40,349 bases of DNA from a virus. Lineage: Duplodnaviria; Caudoviricetes. The stretch covers positions 1 through 40,349 of IMG/VR virus record IMGVR_UViG_3300016722_000152; one strand, written 5' to 3'. The first letter of the stretch is position 1, and every line of letters starts with the position of its first letter. Below the pieces are notes generated by a model that had not been told where the DNA came from, made no database searches, and saw only the letters and a program-made list of their open reading frames with translations. This document shows positions 1,675 through 40,349 of the stretch, piece after piece. A program made the translations under genes and the position numbers.

Positions 1675-1830
1675 ATGAAAGAAAAAGTAATACACGTAAG
1701 TTGTCCAAGCTGTAGCAACAAAAGACTTTTTGATTTAGAAAGAGGTGCAATTGGACTGGTTTCAATAAAATGTCCTAAATGCAGAGCAGTAGTAGCAATT
1801 AAACTACAAAATACCAGAACACAAAAATAA
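1675..1830 (+). CDS. 51-aa zinc-ribbon protein, Mu Com-like (not in the ORF track)
   Basis: Manual translation MKEKVIHVSCPSCSNKRLFDLERGAIGLVSIKCPKCRAVVAIKLQNTRTQK; two CxxC pairs; GGAG RBS upstream. Confidence 0.82.
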   Translation: MKEKVIHVSCPSCSNKRLFDLERGAIGLVSIKCPKCRAVVAIKLQNTRTQK

Positions 1831-1908
1831 TGAACTAATAAGAATTTAAATCCTCTTAGTTCTAACATATTAACTACCGAGCAAGTGATCCTAATTAATA
1901 GAGATACC

Positions 1909-1961
1909 AAATGGCCGGAGTAAAGCTAGAAAATAATAGCTTACTCTGGTCATTTTTTTTT
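1909..1961 (+). terminator. Strong intrinsic terminator/attenuator in the early leader
   Basis: AAATGGCCGGAGTAAAGCTA pairs with TAGCTTACTCTGGTCATTT (G-U pairs, one bulge), ending in a T9 run. Confidence 0.8.
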
Positions 1962-1975
1962 GACCTCTTTTTAGC

Positions 1976-2024
1976 ATTTGCTGACTTTCTTCTAGCTTTA
2001 CAAGGCAAGAAGAAAGGAGCAAAT
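1976..2024 (+). promoter_or_regulatory. RBS-sequestering hairpin
   Basis: Nested stems ATTTGCT/AGCAAAT, CTTTCTTCT/AGAAGAAAG and GCTT/AGGC cover the AAGGAG RBS of the gene at 2029. Confidence 0.7.
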
Positions 2025-2028
2025 AAAA

Positions 2029-2424
2029 ATGAAAATATCATATGAATTTGTAACAGGAGAAATAGTAGAAATTGAGGTTCCAGAAAATATTACAAAGGTG
2101 TCAATAGAAATTGATAGAGATATTTATAACCATAATAGAAAAGAAACTAGGAGACATAATTCTATTGATTATATGGAAGATGCAGGACTTCAATTTGAAG
2201 ATAATAGTGTAGACATAGTATTGGATTTAGAACAAAAAGAAGTAATAGATGAAATAGAACAAGCCTTGGATATATTGTTACCAGAGCAGAAAGAATTGAT
2301 AGAAAAAGTATTTTATAAAAACATGAAAATAGTTGATATTGCAGCAGCTTCAGGAGTTACAGAAGCTGCTGTTAGAAATAGATTAAAAAAAATATATAAA
2401 AAATTGAAAAAAGTTTTAATTTAG
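2029..2424 (+). CDS. Sigma-70 region 4 domain transcription activator
   Basis: C-terminal LLPEQKELIEKVFYKNMKIVDIAAASGVTEAAVRNRLKKI HTH; no region 2 evident. Confidence 0.82.
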   Translation: MKISYEFVTGEIVEIEVPENITKVSIEIDRDIYNHNRKETRRHNSIDYMEDAGLQFEDNSVDIVLDLEQKEVIDEIEQALDILLPEQKELIEKVFYKNMKIVDIAAASGVTEAAVRNRLKKIYKKLKKVLI

Positions 2425-10349: not shown

Positions 10350-11697
10350 TATGCATGAATATCAAAATTACTGTATTGAAAAGATTATAGATAATCCTAT
10401 GTTTGCACTTTTACTGGATATGGGTTTAGGCAAAAGCGTTATAACTTTAACAGCTATTTGGGATTTAATCTTTGATTATTTTGAAGTTTCAAAAGTTCTT
10501 ATAATTGCTCCACTTAGAGTAGCAAGAGATACTTGGTCAAAAGAAATTGAAAAATGGGAACATTTAAAAGAACTTAGAATTTCAAAGATTCTTGGAACTG
10601 AAAAAGAAAGACTAGCAGCTGTTGTTAGAAAAGCTGATATTTATATTATAAATCGTGAAAATGTAGAATGGCTTTGTGAAGATTATAAATTTAATTTTGA
10701 TATGGTGATAATTGATGAACTTAGTTCTTTTAAATCACACAAATCAAAAAGGTTTAAAGCACTTAGAAAAGTAAGACCCAATGTTAAAAGAATAGTTGGA
10801 CTTACAGGAACACCAGCACCAAATAGTTTAATGGATTTATGGAGTCAGATAAATTTACTTGATATGGGAGAAAGACTTGGAAGATTTATTGGTGGATATA
10901 GAGAAAGATATTTTACACCAGACAAAAGAAGTAGAGAAGTTGTATTTTCATATAAACCAAGAGATGGATCAAAAGATGCAATTTATAAAAAAATAAGTGA
11001 TATTTGTATTAGTATGAAGGCACTTGATTATTTAGATATGCCAGATTGTATTTATAACAAGGTTGAAATTAAAATGAATGAAAAAGAAGAAAAACTTTAT
11101 AAAAAATTAGAAACAGAAATGTTACTTTCATTTGAAGAAGGAGATATAGATGCAGTAAATGCAGCAGCTCTTTCAAATAAGTTACTTCAAATGGCAAATG
11201 GAGCTGTCTATGATGAAAATGGAAAAGTTAAAGTAATACATGATAAAAAAATAGATGTTTTAGAAGATTTAATTGAAGGAGCAAATGGGAAACCAGTGCT
11301 TGTGTTTTATGGATACAAACATGATAAAGATAGAATTGTTAAAAGATTTAAGGCAGAAGAAATTAATACTTCTGAAGATATAACAAGATGGAATAATGGA
11401 GAAATTAAGGTGGCAATTGTTCATCCAGCTTCAGCAGGTCATGGATTAAATCTTCAAACAGGTGGATCAACAGCAATATGGTTTGGACTTAATTGGAGTT
11501 TAGAACTTTATCAGCAAGCAAATGCAAGACTTTGGAGACAAGGACAAAAGAGTACGGTTGTTATTCACCATATTATAACTAAAGGAACAGTAGATGAAGA
11601 TGTTATGAAAGCACTTGAAAGAAAAGATATAGGACAGGCTGCTTTAATTGAAGCCATGAAAGTACGAGTTGGAGGTGTTAAAAATGAAAATTTATAG
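10330..11697 (+). CDS. SNF2-like superfamily 2 helicase
   Basis: LDMGLGKS, IIDELS, GLTGTP, GHGLNLQ, QANARLWRQGQ. Confidence 0.92.
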   Translation: MKLKRDDMHEYQNYCIEKIIDNPMFALLLDMGLGKSVITLTAIWDLIFDYFEVSKVLIIAPLRVARDTWSKEIEKWEHLKELRISKILGTEKERLAAVVRKADIYIINRENVEWLCEDYKFNFDMVIIDELSSFKSHKSKRFKALRKVRPNVKRIVGLTGTPAPNSLMDLWSQINLLDMGERLGRFIGGYRERYFTPDKRSREVVFSYKPRDGSKDAIYKKISDICISMKALDYLDMPDCIYNKVEIKMNEKEEKLYKKLETEMLLSFEEGDIDAVNAAALSNKLLQMANGAVYDENGKVKVIHDKKIDVLEDLIEGANGKPVLVFYGYKHDKDRIVKRFKAEEINTSEDITRWNNGEIKVAIVHPASAGHGLNLQTGGSTAIWFGLNWSLELYQQANARLWRQGQKSTVVIHHIITKGTVDEDVMKALERKDIGQAALIEAMKVRVGGVKNENL

Positions 11698-12040
11698 GAA
11701 TAGTATTATAATGGTCGACTTTGGGGAATTACAAGGTTCTGTTCAAAAAGGAGTAAGACCAGCAATAGTTATTCAAAATGACATTGGAAATAAATATTCT
11801 ACAACCACAATAGTTGTACCAATAACAGGGAAAATAAAAAAGACTCTTCCAACACATCATGAATTATCTTCTAAAAATTATTGTTGTTTAAAATGTGATA
11901 GCACAATATTAGCAGAGCAAGTAATAACAATATCAAAAGAACAGATTTTAGATATTATTGGACATCTTAGAGAAGATGATGAAGCCAAATTAAATGAAAT
12001 ATTAGCAATAAGCATGAACATAAAAAGTAATAGGATTTAA
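11684..12040 (+). CDS. PemK/MazF-family endoribonuclease, no adjacent antitoxin recognised
   Basis: GSVQKGVRPAIVIQNDIGNKYSTTTIVVPIT closely matches the Firmicutes NdoA/MazF signature; GGAGG RBS. Confidence 0.88.
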   Translation: MKIYRNSIIMVDFGELQGSVQKGVRPAIVIQNDIGNKYSTTTIVVPITGKIKKTLPTHHELSSKNYCCLKCDSTILAEQVITISKEQILDIIGHLREDDEAKLNEILAISMNIKSNRI

Positions 12041-16133: not shown

Positions 16134-17042
16134 ATGAAAAATCAAACAATAGGTGTAGAAATTGAAATGACAGGAATTACTAGAGAAAAAGCTGCAGAGG
16201 TTACTTCAAAATTCTTAAATGGCAAGATTGAAAGAACATGTGATAGCTACGATACCTACAATGTAAAAGCACCAGATAATAGAGTTTGGAAAATAATGAG
16301 TGATGCAAGTATTCACACAATGAAAAACGAAAAAGGTAGATTGGTTTCAGCAGATAGAAGTTACAGCGTTGAATTGGTTACACCAATTTTAAAGTATGAT
16401 GAGGACATTGAAACACTTCAAGAACTTGTTAGACAGCTCAGACATGCAGGAGCAGTTAGTGAAAGCAAGTTTCAATGTGGCATTCACATTCATATAGGGG
16501 CCAAAGAACATACTCCAAATACTTTAAAGAACTTGGTTAACCTTGTGGCTTCAAAGGAGGATTTAATTTACAAGGGTTTTGAAATAGATCCAGCAAGGGT
16601 TAGGTATTGCCAAAAGGTTAATGAGAATTTGATTGAAACTATAAATAAAAAGAAGCCCAAAACAATAAAGCAACTAGCCGACATTTGGTACAGCGAATAT
16701 GGAGTTGAGAATAGAGAACGCCATTACCACACAAGTAGATACCATGGACTAAATTTACACAGCACTTTTACAAAAGGAACTATTGAATTTAGACTTTTCA
16801 ACGGAACTTTGCACGCAGGAAAAATTAGAAGTTACATAGTTTTCTGCCTAGCAATAAGCCATCAAGCATTAAACCAAAAGAGCGCAAGTGCAAAACGTAC
16901 TCATACAGATAATGAAAAATATACATTTAGATGTTGGCTACTTAGATTGGGACTTATAGGAGATGAATTTAAAAATTGCAGACAACACCTTATGAAATCA
17001 CTTGATGGAAATTCAGCCTGGAGAACACCAAGAATTGCTTGA
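16134..17042 (+). CDS. Amidoligase family protein (COOH-NH2 ligase type)
   Basis: IGVEIE, DAS, ELVTPIL, CGIHIHIG, RYHGLN, TIEFRLFNGTL. Confidence 0.88.
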   Translation: MKNQTIGVEIEMTGITREKAAEVTSKFLNGKIERTCDSYDTYNVKAPDNRVWKIMSDASIHTMKNEKGRLVSADRSYSVELVTPILKYDEDIETLQELVRQLRHAGAVSESKFQCGIHIHIGAKEHTPNTLKNLVNLVASKEDLIYKGFEIDPARVRYCQKVNENLIETINKKKPKTIKQLADIWYSEYGVENRERHYHTSRYHGLNLHSTFTKGTIEFRLFNGTLHAGKIRSYIVFCLAISHQALNQKSASAKRTHTDNEKYTFRCWLLRLGLIGDEFKNCRQHLMKSLDGNSAWRTPRIA

Positions 17043-17110
17043 AATTAAAATTAATTCACAGGGGATAAAAATTCCCTTGTGTAAAACTATAGAAAAGGAG
17101 ACATGATAAA

Positions 17111-17566
17111 GTGGATAAAAAAGTAAAACTATATGGTGCATATGGTTCAAATATGAACTTAGAGCAGATGAGTCATAGATGCCCAAAAGCTAAGGTTGTA
17201 GGAATTGGAATACTTAAAGATTATAAATTAACCTTTAGAGGAAGGTATAAAGGTGTTGCAAATATAGAGCCTTGCAAGGATAAATCAGTACCTATTGTTT
17301 TGTGGGAAATAACGAAGGATTGTGAAACAGCACTTGATTTGTATGAAGGATATCCTAATCTATATATAAAGAAAGAAGTTGAAGTTCTTATAAATGATAA
17401 ACCAAGAAAAGCTATGGTTTATATAATGACAGATGAATATACTGATATAGTAGCAGCTCCAACAGAATATTATTTCAACGTCATTGCAAGAGGGTATTCT
17501 GATAATGGAATTGATTTAAAACCTCTACAGATTGCATATTCAGAATGTTTATCTGAACTTAGATAG
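17111..17566 (+). CDS. Gamma-glutamylcyclotransferase (AIG2-like)
   Basis: YGAYGSNMN..RCP; LDLYEGYP. Confidence 0.88.
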   Translation: MDKKVKLYGAYGSNMNLEQMSHRCPKAKVVGIGILKDYKLTFRGRYKGVANIEPCKDKSVPIVLWEITKDCETALDLYEGYPNLYIKKEVEVLINDKPRKAMVYIMTDEYTDIVAAPTEYYFNVIARGYSDNGIDLKPLQIAYSECLSELR

Positions 17567-36483: not shown

Positions 36484-36565
36484 CTTTAGATTTGCAAGCA
36501 ACTTGACTTCTATCAAGTTAAGAGTGATGTATAGTAGTACAAATTTGATAGAAAGGAGCAAGATT

Positions 36566-37729
36566 ATGCGAGTTAATATTATTAAGCCAACTGTAAAAGA
36601 GCAAAAAGAAAAGAAAAGAGTATGTGCTTATGCTAGAGTATCAAGTGTTCAAGACAAGCAAGGTGAATCTCTAGAAAACCAAATACAGTACTATGAAAAA
36701 CTTATAGCAAATAATTTAGAGTATGAATATATTGGTGTGTTTGCAGATAAAGGTATAACAGGAACAACTAAAAACAGACCTGAGTTTCAAAGAATGCTTG
36801 AGCTTTGTAGGGAAGGAAAGATAGATTTAATAATAACAAAGTCTATATCAAGATTTGCAAGAAACACGACTATTATTTTAGAAACTGTGAGGGAATTAAA
36901 AGATTTAGGGGTAGAAATAATATTTGAAAAAGAGAATATTAGAACTTTATCAGGGGATGGTGAGCTTATGCTTACTGTCCTCTCTTCTTTTGCCCAGGAG
37001 GAGAGCAAGAATGTAAGTGATAATGTAAAATGGAGAATAAAAAAGGAATTTGAAAGAGGGATTTATCATTTAAACACAAATAGGTTTCTAGGGTATGATA
37101 AGGATGAATTTGATAATCTGGTTATAAACAGAAAAGAAGCTAAAATAGTTGAAAGGATATTTGAAGATTATTTAAAGGGAAAAGGTACATTTGTAATTGC
37201 AAAGGAATTAAATATTGAAGAAATACCAACAGTGACAGGTGTCAAATGGTGGTCAAATACTATCTTTATGATACTGAAAAATGAAAAATATAAAGGGGAT
37301 ATTATTCTTCAAAAATACTATACGCCAGACCATTTAAAGAAAAAGCATATTATAAATAATGGTGCAGTTGATAGATACTACATTGAAGATAATCATCCAC
37401 CAATAGTTTCAAGAGAAGTTTGGGATAATGTTCAATCAGAAATTAAAAGAAGAGGAATTTCTAAGAGGCCAAAAGAACATCCATTATTGGGAATGCTATA
37501 TTGTAGTAAATGTGGAGCAGTTCTTAGCAGAAGACTTTGGAGTAATAAAACTCCATTCAAAAAATATGTATGGCAATGTAGTAATTATGTTAATAAATCA
37601 AAGCGTACCTGCACAGGTACTAAAATAGATGAAAAAGAACTTGAGAAAGTTAATATAGATGGGCCAATAATTATTAGGGAGGAATTCAGGGATGGCAAGA
37701 AGCATTACACTTATACCAGCAAGAGGTAG
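36566..37729 (+). CDS. Large serine recombinase 1
   Basis: AYARVSS, TKSISRFARN, AQEES, NEKYKGD, zinc ribbon CSKCG. Confidence 0.93.
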   Translation: MRVNIIKPTVKEQKEKKRVCAYARVSSVQDKQGESLENQIQYYEKLIANNLEYEYIGVFADKGITGTTKNRPEFQRMLELCREGKIDLIITKSISRFARNTTIILETVRELKDLGVEIIFEKENIRTLSGDGELMLTVLSSFAQEESKNVSDNVKWRIKKEFERGIYHLNTNRFLGYDKDEFDNLVINRKEAKIVERIFEDYLKGKGTFVIAKELNIEEIPTVTGVKWWSNTIFMILKNEKYKGDIILQKYYTPDHLKKKHIINNGAVDRYYIEDNHPPIVSREVWDNVQSEIKRRGISKRPKEHPLLGMLYCSKCGAVLSRRLWSNKTPFKKYVWQCSNYVNKSKRTCTGTKIDEKELEKVNIDGPIIIREEFRDGKKHYTYTSKR

Positions 37730-39104
37730 TGGAACAAATATTGCAGAGAATATACAACCACAGAAGAAAAGAATGGCAGCTTACTGTAGAGTTTCCACAG
37801 ATCAATTAGAACAGTTATCAAGTTATGAAGCACAGGTTAATTATTATACTACATTTATAAATAGTAACTTGGACTATGAATTTGTACGAATTTATGCTGA
37901 TGAAGGGATTTCAGGAACTAACACTAAAAAGAGAGAACAATTCAATAAAATGATTGAAGACTGCAAGGCTGGAAAGATAGACGTAATTATAACTAAATCA
38001 ATTTCAAGATTTGCAAGGAACACTCTTGATTGTCTAAATTATGTAAGAATACTTAAGGAACTTCATATTGCAGTTATTTTTGAAAAGGAAAATATTAATA
38101 CTTTAGATTCAAAAGGTGAAGTTTTACTTACCATACTTAGTTCGCTTGCACAAGATGAATCAAGGAGCATTTCAGAGAATACTACATGGGGGATTAGAAG
38201 AAAATTTGAACAAGGAAAGGTTTCAATAAATCACACAAAATTTTTAGGATATGATAAGGGAGAAGATGGTAATCTTATTATTAATGAAAAACAAGCTAAG
38301 ATTATAAGAAGGATTTACAGAGAATTCCTTGATGGAAAAGGTCCAAGTAGAATAGCAAGAGAATTTGAAGATGAAGGAGTTCAAATTTGGAATGGAAAAT
38401 CAAAATGGTATGACACCACTATAGGAAGTATACTAAGTAATGAAAAATATAAAGGAGATGCAATTCTTCAAAAGAGTTTTTCGGTAGATTTTCTTACAAA
38501 GAAAAGAGTGAAAAATAAAGGAGAAGTTCAACAGTACTATGTTGAAGACAGCCACCCTGCAATAATAGATAAAGAAATGTGGGAAGCAGCTCAGCTTGAA
38601 ATGGAGAGAAGAAGAACTTTTATAGAAAAGTATGGATTAAAAAAAATAGAGTATGCATTAAAAAATAATATTTTTTCAGGAAGAGTTATCTGTGGACACT
38701 GCGGCAGTTCTTTTGGAAGAAAAATTTGGAACTCTACTGATGAAAGATTACGAAGGGTTGTTTGGAGATGTAATAGAAAGTATGTAGTAAAAGGTAAAAA
38801 GAGCTGTGATAATAAACATATAGATGACAGCGTTTTATACAAAGCTTTTATAGATACATTTAACGCTATGATTGAAAATAGGGATTACTTTATGGAAAAG
38901 TGGTATGAAGAAGTACAAAATGAAAATGCATTAGTAAGATATAAAGCAAAACAGTTTATAAAAATTATAGAAAATGCAGAGCTAATAAAAGAATTTGATA
39001 TGGACTTGTTTTTTAGGATAGTTGAGAAAATGAGTGTACTTGATGGAAATAAGATTATTGTAACTTTGCTTGATGGTACAGATGTTGAATGTGAAATTGA
39101 ATAA
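37692..39104 (+). CDS. Large serine recombinase 2
   Basis: AYCRVST, TKSISRFARN, AQDES, NEKYKGD, CGHCG. Confidence 0.94.
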   Translation: MARSITLIPARGSGTNIAENIQPQKKRMAAYCRVSTDQLEQLSSYEAQVNYYTTFINSNLDYEFVRIYADEGISGTNTKKREQFNKMIEDCKAGKIDVIITKSISRFARNTLDCLNYVRILKELHIAVIFEKENINTLDSKGEVLLTILSSLAQDESRSISENTTWGIRRKFEQGKVSINHTKFLGYDKGEDGNLIINEKQAKIIRRIYREFLDGKGPSRIAREFEDEGVQIWNGKSKWYDTTIGSILSNEKYKGDAILQKSFSVDFLTKKRVKNKGEVQQYYVEDSHPAIIDKEMWEAAQLEMERRRTFIEKYGLKKIEYALKNNIFSGRVICGHCGSSFGRKIWNSTDERLRRVVWRCNRKYVVKGKKSCDNKHIDDSVLYKAFIDTFNAMIENRDYFMEKWYEEVQNENALVRYKAKQFIKIIENAELIKEFDMDLFFRIVEKMSVLDGNKIIVTLLDGTDVECEIE

Positions 39105-39118
39105 GGTTTGTATGTTGT

Positions 39119-39170
39119 ATAGCCAGTTGAGGATGATAGAGTCATTCTTGACTGGCTATTTTTGTTTTTT
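39119..39170 (+). terminator. Intrinsic terminator
   Basis: ATAGCCAGTTGAGGATGA-5 nt-TCATTCTTGACTGGCTAT followed by Ts. Confidence 0.85.
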
Positions 39171-39322
39171 AAGAAGATATGAGGAATTTATATATGATGA
39201 TACAATGGTAAATTTGTGAAAAATATGGTAAAATGATGTATCTTTATGTATAATTACAGTGTACTATCATGCAGATTTAGATATAGAGTGAAGTTAATAA
39301 AAAATTTGTATTTTAGTCATAC

Positions 39323-39356
39323 ATGGACATTGTGTGTCTATCTAAATGGTTATAAT
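39323..39356 (+). promoter_or_regulatory. Putative WYL operator and -10 box
   Basis: ATGGACA-TTGTG-TGTCTAT imperfect palindrome (39323-39341); TATAAT at 39351. Confidence 0.55.
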
Positions 39357-39380
39357 TAAAGATAGATAGTGGTGATAAAT

Positions 39381-40349
39381 ATGATTGATGAAAAAGATGT
39401 AAAGGTTAATCGCATATTAACAATATACTCAAAATTAGTACATGGTGAGATTGTTAATAAAAGAGAAATGGCTGAATTATTTAATGTGAATAAAAAAACA
39501 ATTCAGAGGGACTTAGATGATATAAGAGCTTATTTTTATTATAGTCGAGAAATTCAAGGAGCTAAAGATATCATATATAAGCGCGATAAGAAGGGCTATT
39601 TTCTTGATAATAGAGATGATGTGTTAACAAAAGAAGATATTTTATCAATAACAAAAATATTACTTGAAAGCAGAGCTTTTTGTAGAGAGGAACTAAAGCA
39701 TTTGACCAATTCTATATTGGTACAGGTTGATAATGTGCAAAGAAAGTATATTAAAGATATAGTTGGTAATGAGTTATTAAATTATGTTCCTTTGATGCAT
39801 AGTGACTTTCTGTTATCAAAAATATGGGATTTAAGTGAATTAATAAGAAGTAAGGAATTAACACAAATAACCTATATAAAGATTGATGGCATGGAAGTAA
39901 AAAGAATAGTTAAGCCAGTAGCGATTATCTTTTCTGAATATTATTTTTACTTAATAGCCTATTTCAATGATTTTGACTCACCAACTGTATTTAGAGTTGA
40001 TAGAATTAAAGCGTATAAAATAGTAGGAGAAAAATTCTATATACCAAGCGCAGGAAGATTTGAAGATGGAGAGTTTAGAAAAAGAGTTCAATTTATGTAT
40101 GCAGGTAAGCTTATGAAAATAAAATTTGAGTTTACAGGATCTTCAATAGATGCAGTATTGGATAAGTTGCCTACAGCAAGGATCATAGAATCGTTAGAAA
40201 ATAAATTTATAGTAGAAGCTGAGGTTTATGGTAAGGGAATAATGATGTGGTTATTAAGTCAGGGGAAGAATATCAGAGTAATCTCACCAGATGATTTTTG
40301 TAAGGATATTATAACTGAAATTAATCAAATGAGAGAATTGTATAAATAA
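39381..40349 (+). CDS. HTH-WYL-WCX transcriptional regulator
   Basis: FNVNKKTIQRDL HTH; YFYLIAY..FRVDRI WYL; WLLSQG..VISP WCX. Confidence 0.92.
   Translation: MIDEKDVKVNRILTIYSKLVHGEIVNKREMAELFNVNKKTIQRDLDDIRAYFYYSREIQGAKDIIYKRDKKGYFLDNRDDVLTKEDILSITKILLESRAFCREELKHLTNSILVQVDNVQRKYIKDIVGNELLNYVPLMHSDFLLSKIWDLSELIRSKELTQITYIKIDGMEVKRIVKPVAIIFSEYYFYLIAYFNDFDSPTVFRVDRIKAYKIVGEKFYIPSAGRFEDGEFRKRVQFMYAGKLMKIKFEFTGSSIDAVLDKLPTARIIESLENKFIVEAEVYGKGIMMWLLSQGKNIRVISPDDFCKDIITEINQMRELYK

Follow-up and report, generated by a model that had tools for sequence, protein, structure and literature searches.

The analysed stretch of DNA (the window; 40,349 nucleotides, provirus record IMGVR_UViG_3300016722_000152) carries a leader RNA in which an antiterminator hairpin and an intrinsic terminator share one strand. 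We hold this conserved terminator/antiterminator RNA to be real with high confidence. It stands between the gene of a small Com-like zinc-ribbon protein and a sigma-region-4 gene, and the layout was found in the window prophage and in over a hundred related elements. The protein is probably the antiterminator, LicT/RAT-like in action and with a Com-like fold, and would usually gate a sigma-region-4 gene. At the level of sequence, the layout, the 8-nt overlap of the two structures, compensatory pairing in both folds and a two-way linkage of RNA and protein gene were established.

The genes of the window are arranged in the order XRE repressor, ImmA/IrrE-type peptidase, switch region, DUF2800, ssDNA-binding protein, PolA, full sigma factor, VapE, packaging and head genes and two serine recombinases. 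The switch region and its flanks comprise the following features:

1585 to 1604, no strand: palindrome TGTAAGC-N6-GCTTACA just 5' of the promoter, candidate operator of the upstream XRE repressor
1613 to 1641, + strand: sigma-A-type promoter (11 of 12 matches) with a presumably LexA-like box in its spacer
1675 to 1830, + strand: Com-like zinc-ribbon protein, 51 aa, likely antiterminator (PHROG match, family profile against Mu Com, four-strand model)
1832 to 1862, + strand: small stem, weak and probably incidental
1871 to 1923, + strand: predicted antiterminator hairpin, conserved (RNA model match, covariation)
1909 to 1961, + strand: intrinsic terminator (folding), with 1914-1921 common to the antiterminator
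1922 to 1931, + strand: predicted 5' strand of a third helix, pairing with 1990-1999 (the anti-SD strand) in 10 perfect pairs and free only without the terminator
1976 to 2024, + strand: hairpin burying the Shine-Dalgarno sequence (SD) at 2014-2019 (folding, conservation)
2029 to 2424, + strand: sigma-70 region-4 regulator, 131 aa, the gated gene (family-model matches)
2424 to 2465, + strand: promoter-like conserved stretch 3' of the regulator gene, candidate target before the replication genes

Elsewhere in the window, we noted a hairpin after the peptidase gene (1541-1574), a PemK/MazF-like toxin gene (11669-12040), an amidoligase with GGACT gene (16134-17566) and the two serine recombinases with a WYL-domain gene (36503-40349).

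The terminator (1909-1955, followed by nine T at 1953-1961) had a folding energy of -25.6 kcal/mol and a z of -5.8, and none of 200 shuffles was as good. The hairpin at 1976-2024 forms 20 bp over AAGGAG at 2014-2019 and leaves the AUG outside (-22.2, z -5.4, 0 of 200 shuffles as good). An earlier note, made from the sequence alone, had described a long terminator at 1909-1961, a ~20-bp hairpin hiding the RBS of the sigma-region-4 gene and a lack of any consensus promoter from the terminator to 2029. All three descriptions held, and no consensus promoter was seen between 1961 and 2029. The small stem that it had placed at 1832-1862 exists, but it is marginal (z -2.05, 10 of 200 shuffles as good), lies outside the conserved element and is absent from the conserved alignment.

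The antiterminator consists of an outer helix (1873-1882 with 1914-1921, bulged A1876 and A1880) and an inner helix (1887-1891 with 1901-1907, bulged A1902 and A1906). Its base takes 8 nt of the 5' arm of the terminator. At about -10 kcal/mol, it can form in full once 1921 has been transcribed and stays the best fold until the 3' arm of the terminator emerges; by 1952, the terminator wins. The default state is predicted to be OFF, because the terminator outcompetes the antiterminator without help (-25.6 versus about -10 kcal/mol). In the unbound fold, positions 1975-1981, after the U-tract, can pair with 1881-1887 of the antiterminator. A similar pairing was seen in L139, L202 and L226, and it is possibly a reset on read-through transcripts.

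With the downstream regulator as query, six viral loci were found. Five of the six carried a divergent CxxC-CxxC ORF, then an ACYGAGC...ACC...GCCRGA element and a terminator, several of them in tandem; L007, a weak match, was without this arrangement of ORF and element. A loose pattern scan returned mostly chance matches (terminator and small zinc ribbon in 1 of 120 loci) and was rejected. An RNA-only pattern led to 72 viral loci, in 54 of which a short zinc-ribbon ORF ended ≤450 nt upstream.

A structure of 15 pairs was set by hand from an alignment of 34 distinct, hand-picked copies and then checked on an independent set. In the 34-copy alignment, 89% of the cells were paired (22-38% in slid controls) and nine of the 15 pairs had changed on both sides. 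The covariation score was reached by none of 500 shuffles. RNAalifold alone recovered eight of the 15 pairs. Covariation of the leader had been set beforehand as the test of its conservation in homologues, and the signal was strong. The window holds one copy of the element (E 1.4e-14), and this copy was part of the model.

The pattern for the independent set fixed the invariant core and left the terminator, inner stem and outer flank free. It identified at least 120 genome loci, mostly Clostridia by record title. Among the matches listed were 124 copies, 101 of them with a terminator (3' arm and T-run); 23 listed copies were without it, some of these truncated, and L231 has three copies with the terminator displaced. 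The outer pair, formed by the base before the core and the base after GCCGGA, was Watson-Crick in 100 of the 106 distinct listed copies (shuffle mean 45, maximum 61), with AU in 57, GC in 30 and CG in 13. Its second base was also paired within the terminator in 83 of 85 listed copies. Such covariation of one strand with two partners is expected of a true switch. The next outer pair was weaker (64 of 106 listed copies versus a shuffle mean of 43). The inner pairs were formed in 105, 83, 101 and 105 of the 106 listed copies (shuffle means 54, 41, 63 and 81); 18 of the misses of the second inner pair were U-U. The bulged A was present in 103 of 106 listed copies. The pair types changed about 16, 10, 19 and 20 times on a tree of 98 proteins, which is quick and weak (59 columns) and is the sole correction of the pair counts for kinship. 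For one strict pattern, we estimate ~150 stored stretches (GTDB species representatives).

Two or three copies of the element stand in tandem in L231 (2501-2784), L002 (732-884) and L004 (195-368). Such tandem copies would sharpen the response.

The unannotated 51-aa CxxC..CxxC ORF that the earlier note had named as the first gene past the promoter is present at 1675-1830, with the spacing CxxC-19-CxxC and GGAG in front. The protein matches PHROG 6417, a 'translational regulator' (E 2.5e-11). The alignment took in 70 of 100 distinct relatives, and the four Cys were invariant in 71 sequences. PHROG 6417 was matched by 52 of the 71 aligned relatives and gpCom, weakly, by 18. Mu Com against the family profile (hhalign) gave a probability of 95 and E 3.4e-8 over 32 columns, and the pairwise identity of the window protein and Mu Com was 33% over 30 aa. 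The Pfam Com model (PF10122) was not among the 11 families matching the window protein at E 0.01, and it matched 14 of the 71 relatives weakly (best E 8.7e-5). A word-based protein search found only five close relatives, and scanning with the back-translated 51-aa protein gave no viral locus.

The predicted structure is a four-strand ribbon (pLDDT 80). Fold searches with this model returned only generic ribbons, Cren7 among the weak ones, and no informative match; sequence and fold searches of the PDB gave no match at E 0.001. No CAT RNA-binding domain or PRD was matched among the families shown for the protein. As the Pfam Com model misses the window protein and no informative fold match was obtained, the family is called Com-like and not a Com; judged by these profiles, it appears to be a distant relative of Mu Com. 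The relation to Mu Com that had been proposed is thus supported at profile level, but it is distant and below the Pfam cut-off. In L364, the element follows a 137-aa ORF (1566-1979, - strand) that encodes tandem zinc ribbons, an arrangement that fits a two-module RNA target.

RNA and protein gene were linked in both directions. A zinc-ribbon ORF was found upstream in 68 of the 78 listed loci with enough upstream sequence, versus 3 of 1035 control windows; by the rule used, it was absent in the other ten. In 149 scored genomes of one family (seed genome included), the RNA model matched 12 places in 10 genomes. Eleven of the 12 lay within ~120 nt after a same-strand match of the protein profile, and the twelfth followed a tandem zinc-ribbon ORF. 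Starting from the protein, the RNA model matched near 11 of 14 strong protein matches (one with filters off, E 2.8e-5). Of the rest, one RNA copy was partial (E 0.13), one locus had no RNA-model match although inspection by eye showed an outer helix and a terminator, and one locus was left out of the check. None of 18 loci with weak protein matches matched the RNA model.

Seven annotated phage records were found by the protein alone, and four were examined. Three of the four carry a divergent copy of the element at the end of the ORF (E 0.003-0.036), and the copy in the fourth is partial (E 1.4). A terminator-like fold was present at each of the four, and two of these phages have a second copy about 1.5 kb further on. 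In these two gut phage records, the second antiterminator and terminator stand before non-sigma genes (L321 2745-2795; L322 4186-4236).

While the zinc-ribbon partner upstream is nearly constant, the downstream gene varies. There were 103 distinct downstream proteins, of which 81 were scanned: 50 matched sigma region 4 or ECF models and five matched HTH_11. In the 2029 gene of the window, sigma-70 region 4 was matched and region 2 was without a match. Directly past the stop codon of the regulator, a stretch resembling 2424-2465 was seen by eye in many homologues. This promoter-like stretch is likely the target of the regulator; a second copy was not found within the window.

An SOS promoter had been proposed in front of the ORF. 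The window locus does have a good box, GAAC-N4-GTTC at 1622-1633 inside the promoter spacer, which we take to be LexA-like; it is the single such site in the window. In the family, the exact box occurred in 1 of 106 distinct copies among the matches listed (0.2 expected), and a box with one mismatch occurred in 10 of 106 listed copies (5.6 expected). A family-wide LexA box was rejected on these counts, and the promoter pattern was not enriched upstream of the ORFs (22 of 106 listed copies versus 27 expected). The putative SOS control is a trait of the window locus and not of the family. As the LexA-like box is rare in the family, the switch would work downstream of different promoters.

In the accessible part of Nowacka et al. 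(PMC6483171), Com recognises CC(N)2-3GAG, with GA crucial and two motifs preferred. The fold predicted here places a CC strand opposite a GAG strand with a bulged A twice, once per helix (G-A-R in the inner helix); the loop length is unlike that of the SELEX motif, and the RNA model had no match at the Mu site. By analogy with Com, we infer that the zinc-ribbon protein reads the two CC/GAG modules. A binding site had been guessed at 1870-1910, close to the conserved hairpin found at 1871-1923, the probable site.

The proposed mechanism is as follows. The Com-like zinc ribbon would bind the bulged-A hairpin (1871-1923) on the nascent transcript, and the held hairpin would keep the overlapping terminator (1909-1961) from forming. 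RNA polymerase would then continue into the sigma-region-4 gene and on to the replication genes that follow. As the protein gene lies upstream of the terminator, the protein could be made first, from the short transcripts of the derepressed promoter. Once it accumulates, later transcripts would read through, so that read-through lags promoter firing. This would amount to a delay or threshold, comparable to the place of lambda N in its cascade. The switch sits at the first step after derepression and could set whether a short signal commits the element.

A real terminator/antiterminator switch with another trigger (a small molecule, a host protein, an antisense RNA or a ribosome finishing the zinc-ribbon ORF), in which the zinc ribbon only travels along, is the least improbable alternative, though still an unlikely one. 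Consistent with it, ORF and hairpin overlap at 19 of 123 loci. Riboswitch aptamers typically carry invariant unpaired bases, and the invariant unpaired bases of the element fit these as well. However, the distance from the stop codon to the hairpin varies from -260 to +27 nt, which is too loose for attenuation by the ribosome. The linkage to the zinc ribbon is near complete both ways, while the downstream genes vary, and these genes are regulators and not metabolic. Moreover, the related Com protein binds a similar RNA module, as described in the accessible part of PMC6483171.

The RBS of the gated gene is a second lock. Opening it costs 15.9 kcal/mol for the 2029 gene versus 2.2-8.4 kcal/mol for 13 other starts in the window. 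In the family, the cost was ≥10 kcal/mol for 40 of 55 gated genes versus 33 of 126 neighbours (p 7e-9), and an occluded RBS at the gated gene is characteristic of the family. An equilibrium coupling of antitermination to RBS opening was considered and failed in the window: with the antiterminator held, the cost rises from 11.9 to 15.2 kcal/mol. In six of eight hand-picked loci of the window subtype it falls, yet it stays at 12-20 kcal/mol, and in three of three loci of the other subtype it rises.

A Mu-like main action, with the protein binding the leader of read-through transcripts and freeing the RBS of the sigma-like gene while termination is a fixed leak, is unlikely, slightly more so than a different trigger. 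The conserved occlusion and the lowered costs in six of the eight loci agree with it, but the conserved element lies ~90 nt from the SD, the lowered costs remain high and the costs are raised in the window and in the other subtype. Antitermination by the zinc ribbon remains the likely reading of what the earlier note had put as binding of the leader to antiterminate and/or free the RBS. Its second half is not borne out by equilibrium folding of the window: the hairpin is conserved, but it is predicted to stay shut when the antiterminator is held.

Because the RBS is not predicted to open at equilibrium in the window, its release there would depend on the co-transcriptional third helix. Only 36 of 109 loci showed a significant third helix. 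In loci of the window subtype it forms with the anti-SD strand, and elsewhere the U-tract is often the partner. Window transcripts that end at 2000-2010 fold best with this helix, and longer ones favour the SD hairpin. The freed arm (1922-1931) might, in this subtype, capture the anti-SD strand (1990-1999) while the SD is still to be transcribed and so give a brief translation window. In these folding models, RBS opening via the third helix is possible but weak, and we propose it with less assurance than antitermination.

That the element acts as DNA (an operator or promoter) for a DNA-binding zinc ribbon, or that the protein promotes termination, is very improbable: many small zinc ribbons bind DNA, Cren7 was among the weak fold matches and the core bases are invariant, but compensatory changes around one-strand bulged A's, the fixed orientation and the terminator overlap fit RNA, and a termination factor is not needed because the terminator already wins unaided.

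No Rfam 15 family matched over the element in the window or in 20 loci. In 15 more loci, Rfam gave four matches (DUF2800, pemK twice and a group II intron), all away from the element. The DUF2800 and pemK RNAs occur in the same mobile elements, separate from the motif (L323 2920-3072; L327 2636-2736; L231 3862-3957). A description of the element was not found in the full-text literature, which included few subscription papers, or in the accessible parts of the motif surveys PMC11109978, PMC8632094 and PMC5737381. The motif was absent from the supplements of PMC8632094 and from part of those of PMC8040213; it may be listed in the supplements of PMC11109978 and PMC5737381 or in the rest of PMC8040213.

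Few protein families are known to antiterminate by refolding of the RNA, and a single target of Com has been studied. The switch, if confirmed, would be a new RNA family with a new antiterminator fold, across many Clostridia prophages and other mobile elements, and it would give a function to a small ORF missed by annotation. A 51-aa protein and a 50-nt RNA are easily tested and might be put to use in anaerobes as a compact genetic switch.

In L337, L347 and L351, more distant zinc ribbons are followed by GAGCC repeats running into the 5' arm of a terminator. These loci are possibly other members of a wider Com-like switch class. Tentatively, and with more doubt than belief, the Com fold could supply the protein component of RNA switches that form a large and overlooked class in Bacillota mobile elements. 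A sensor-less zinc ribbon in front of its own site would read two CC/GAG bulged-A modules, and one binding event would block termination and open the RBS via the co-transcriptional third helix. This would make a self-contained delay timer in the lysis/excision decision, with Mu translational activation as one branch and the GAGCC repeats by terminators after distant zinc ribbons as others.

The protein resembles Mu Com (PF10122) in its four-Cys ribbon with an alignable core. The small gene lies directly upstream of its RNA target (putative here), sometimes overlapping it; both systems have, here by the predicted fold, a CC/GAG module with an unpaired A and a downstream start locked in a hairpin. 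They differ in that Com activates translation at a 19-nt hairpin by the start codon (accessible part of PMC6483171), whereas a ~50-nt two-module hairpin overlaps an intrinsic terminator here. The RNA model had no match in the Mu com-mom region. The present hosts belong mainly to the Clostridia, and a regulator is the target, while the Mu target is a DNA-modifying enzyme.

In LicT/RAT, as far as the accessible part of PMC5393181 describes it, a weak hairpin shares 6-10 nt with a stronger terminator and the protein is needed to hold it. The likeness of the present element to the BglG/SacY/LicT-RAT systems, on the same partial source, lies in two conserved stem interruptions, a variable apical loop and the terminator overlap (8 nt here). 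RAT has 29-33 nt and two internal loops (PMC5393181, same part), while the present hairpin has ~50 nt and four bulged A's. The protein is unrelated: it has 51 aa, no CAT/PRD domain and no evident sensor. Moreover, its gene is part of a mobile element and precedes the site of the protein itself.

Lambda N is encoded by the first gene after a repressed promoter, which is followed by a terminator and then the delayed-early regulators. The gene order of promoter, first gene, terminator and regulators is the same here, and both systems have extra sites down the operon. The N peptide is rich in arginine, works together with Nus factors to modify RNA polymerase and acts processively. In contrast to lambda N/nut, every site of the present system overlaps a terminator of its own, and this points to local refolding of the RNA.
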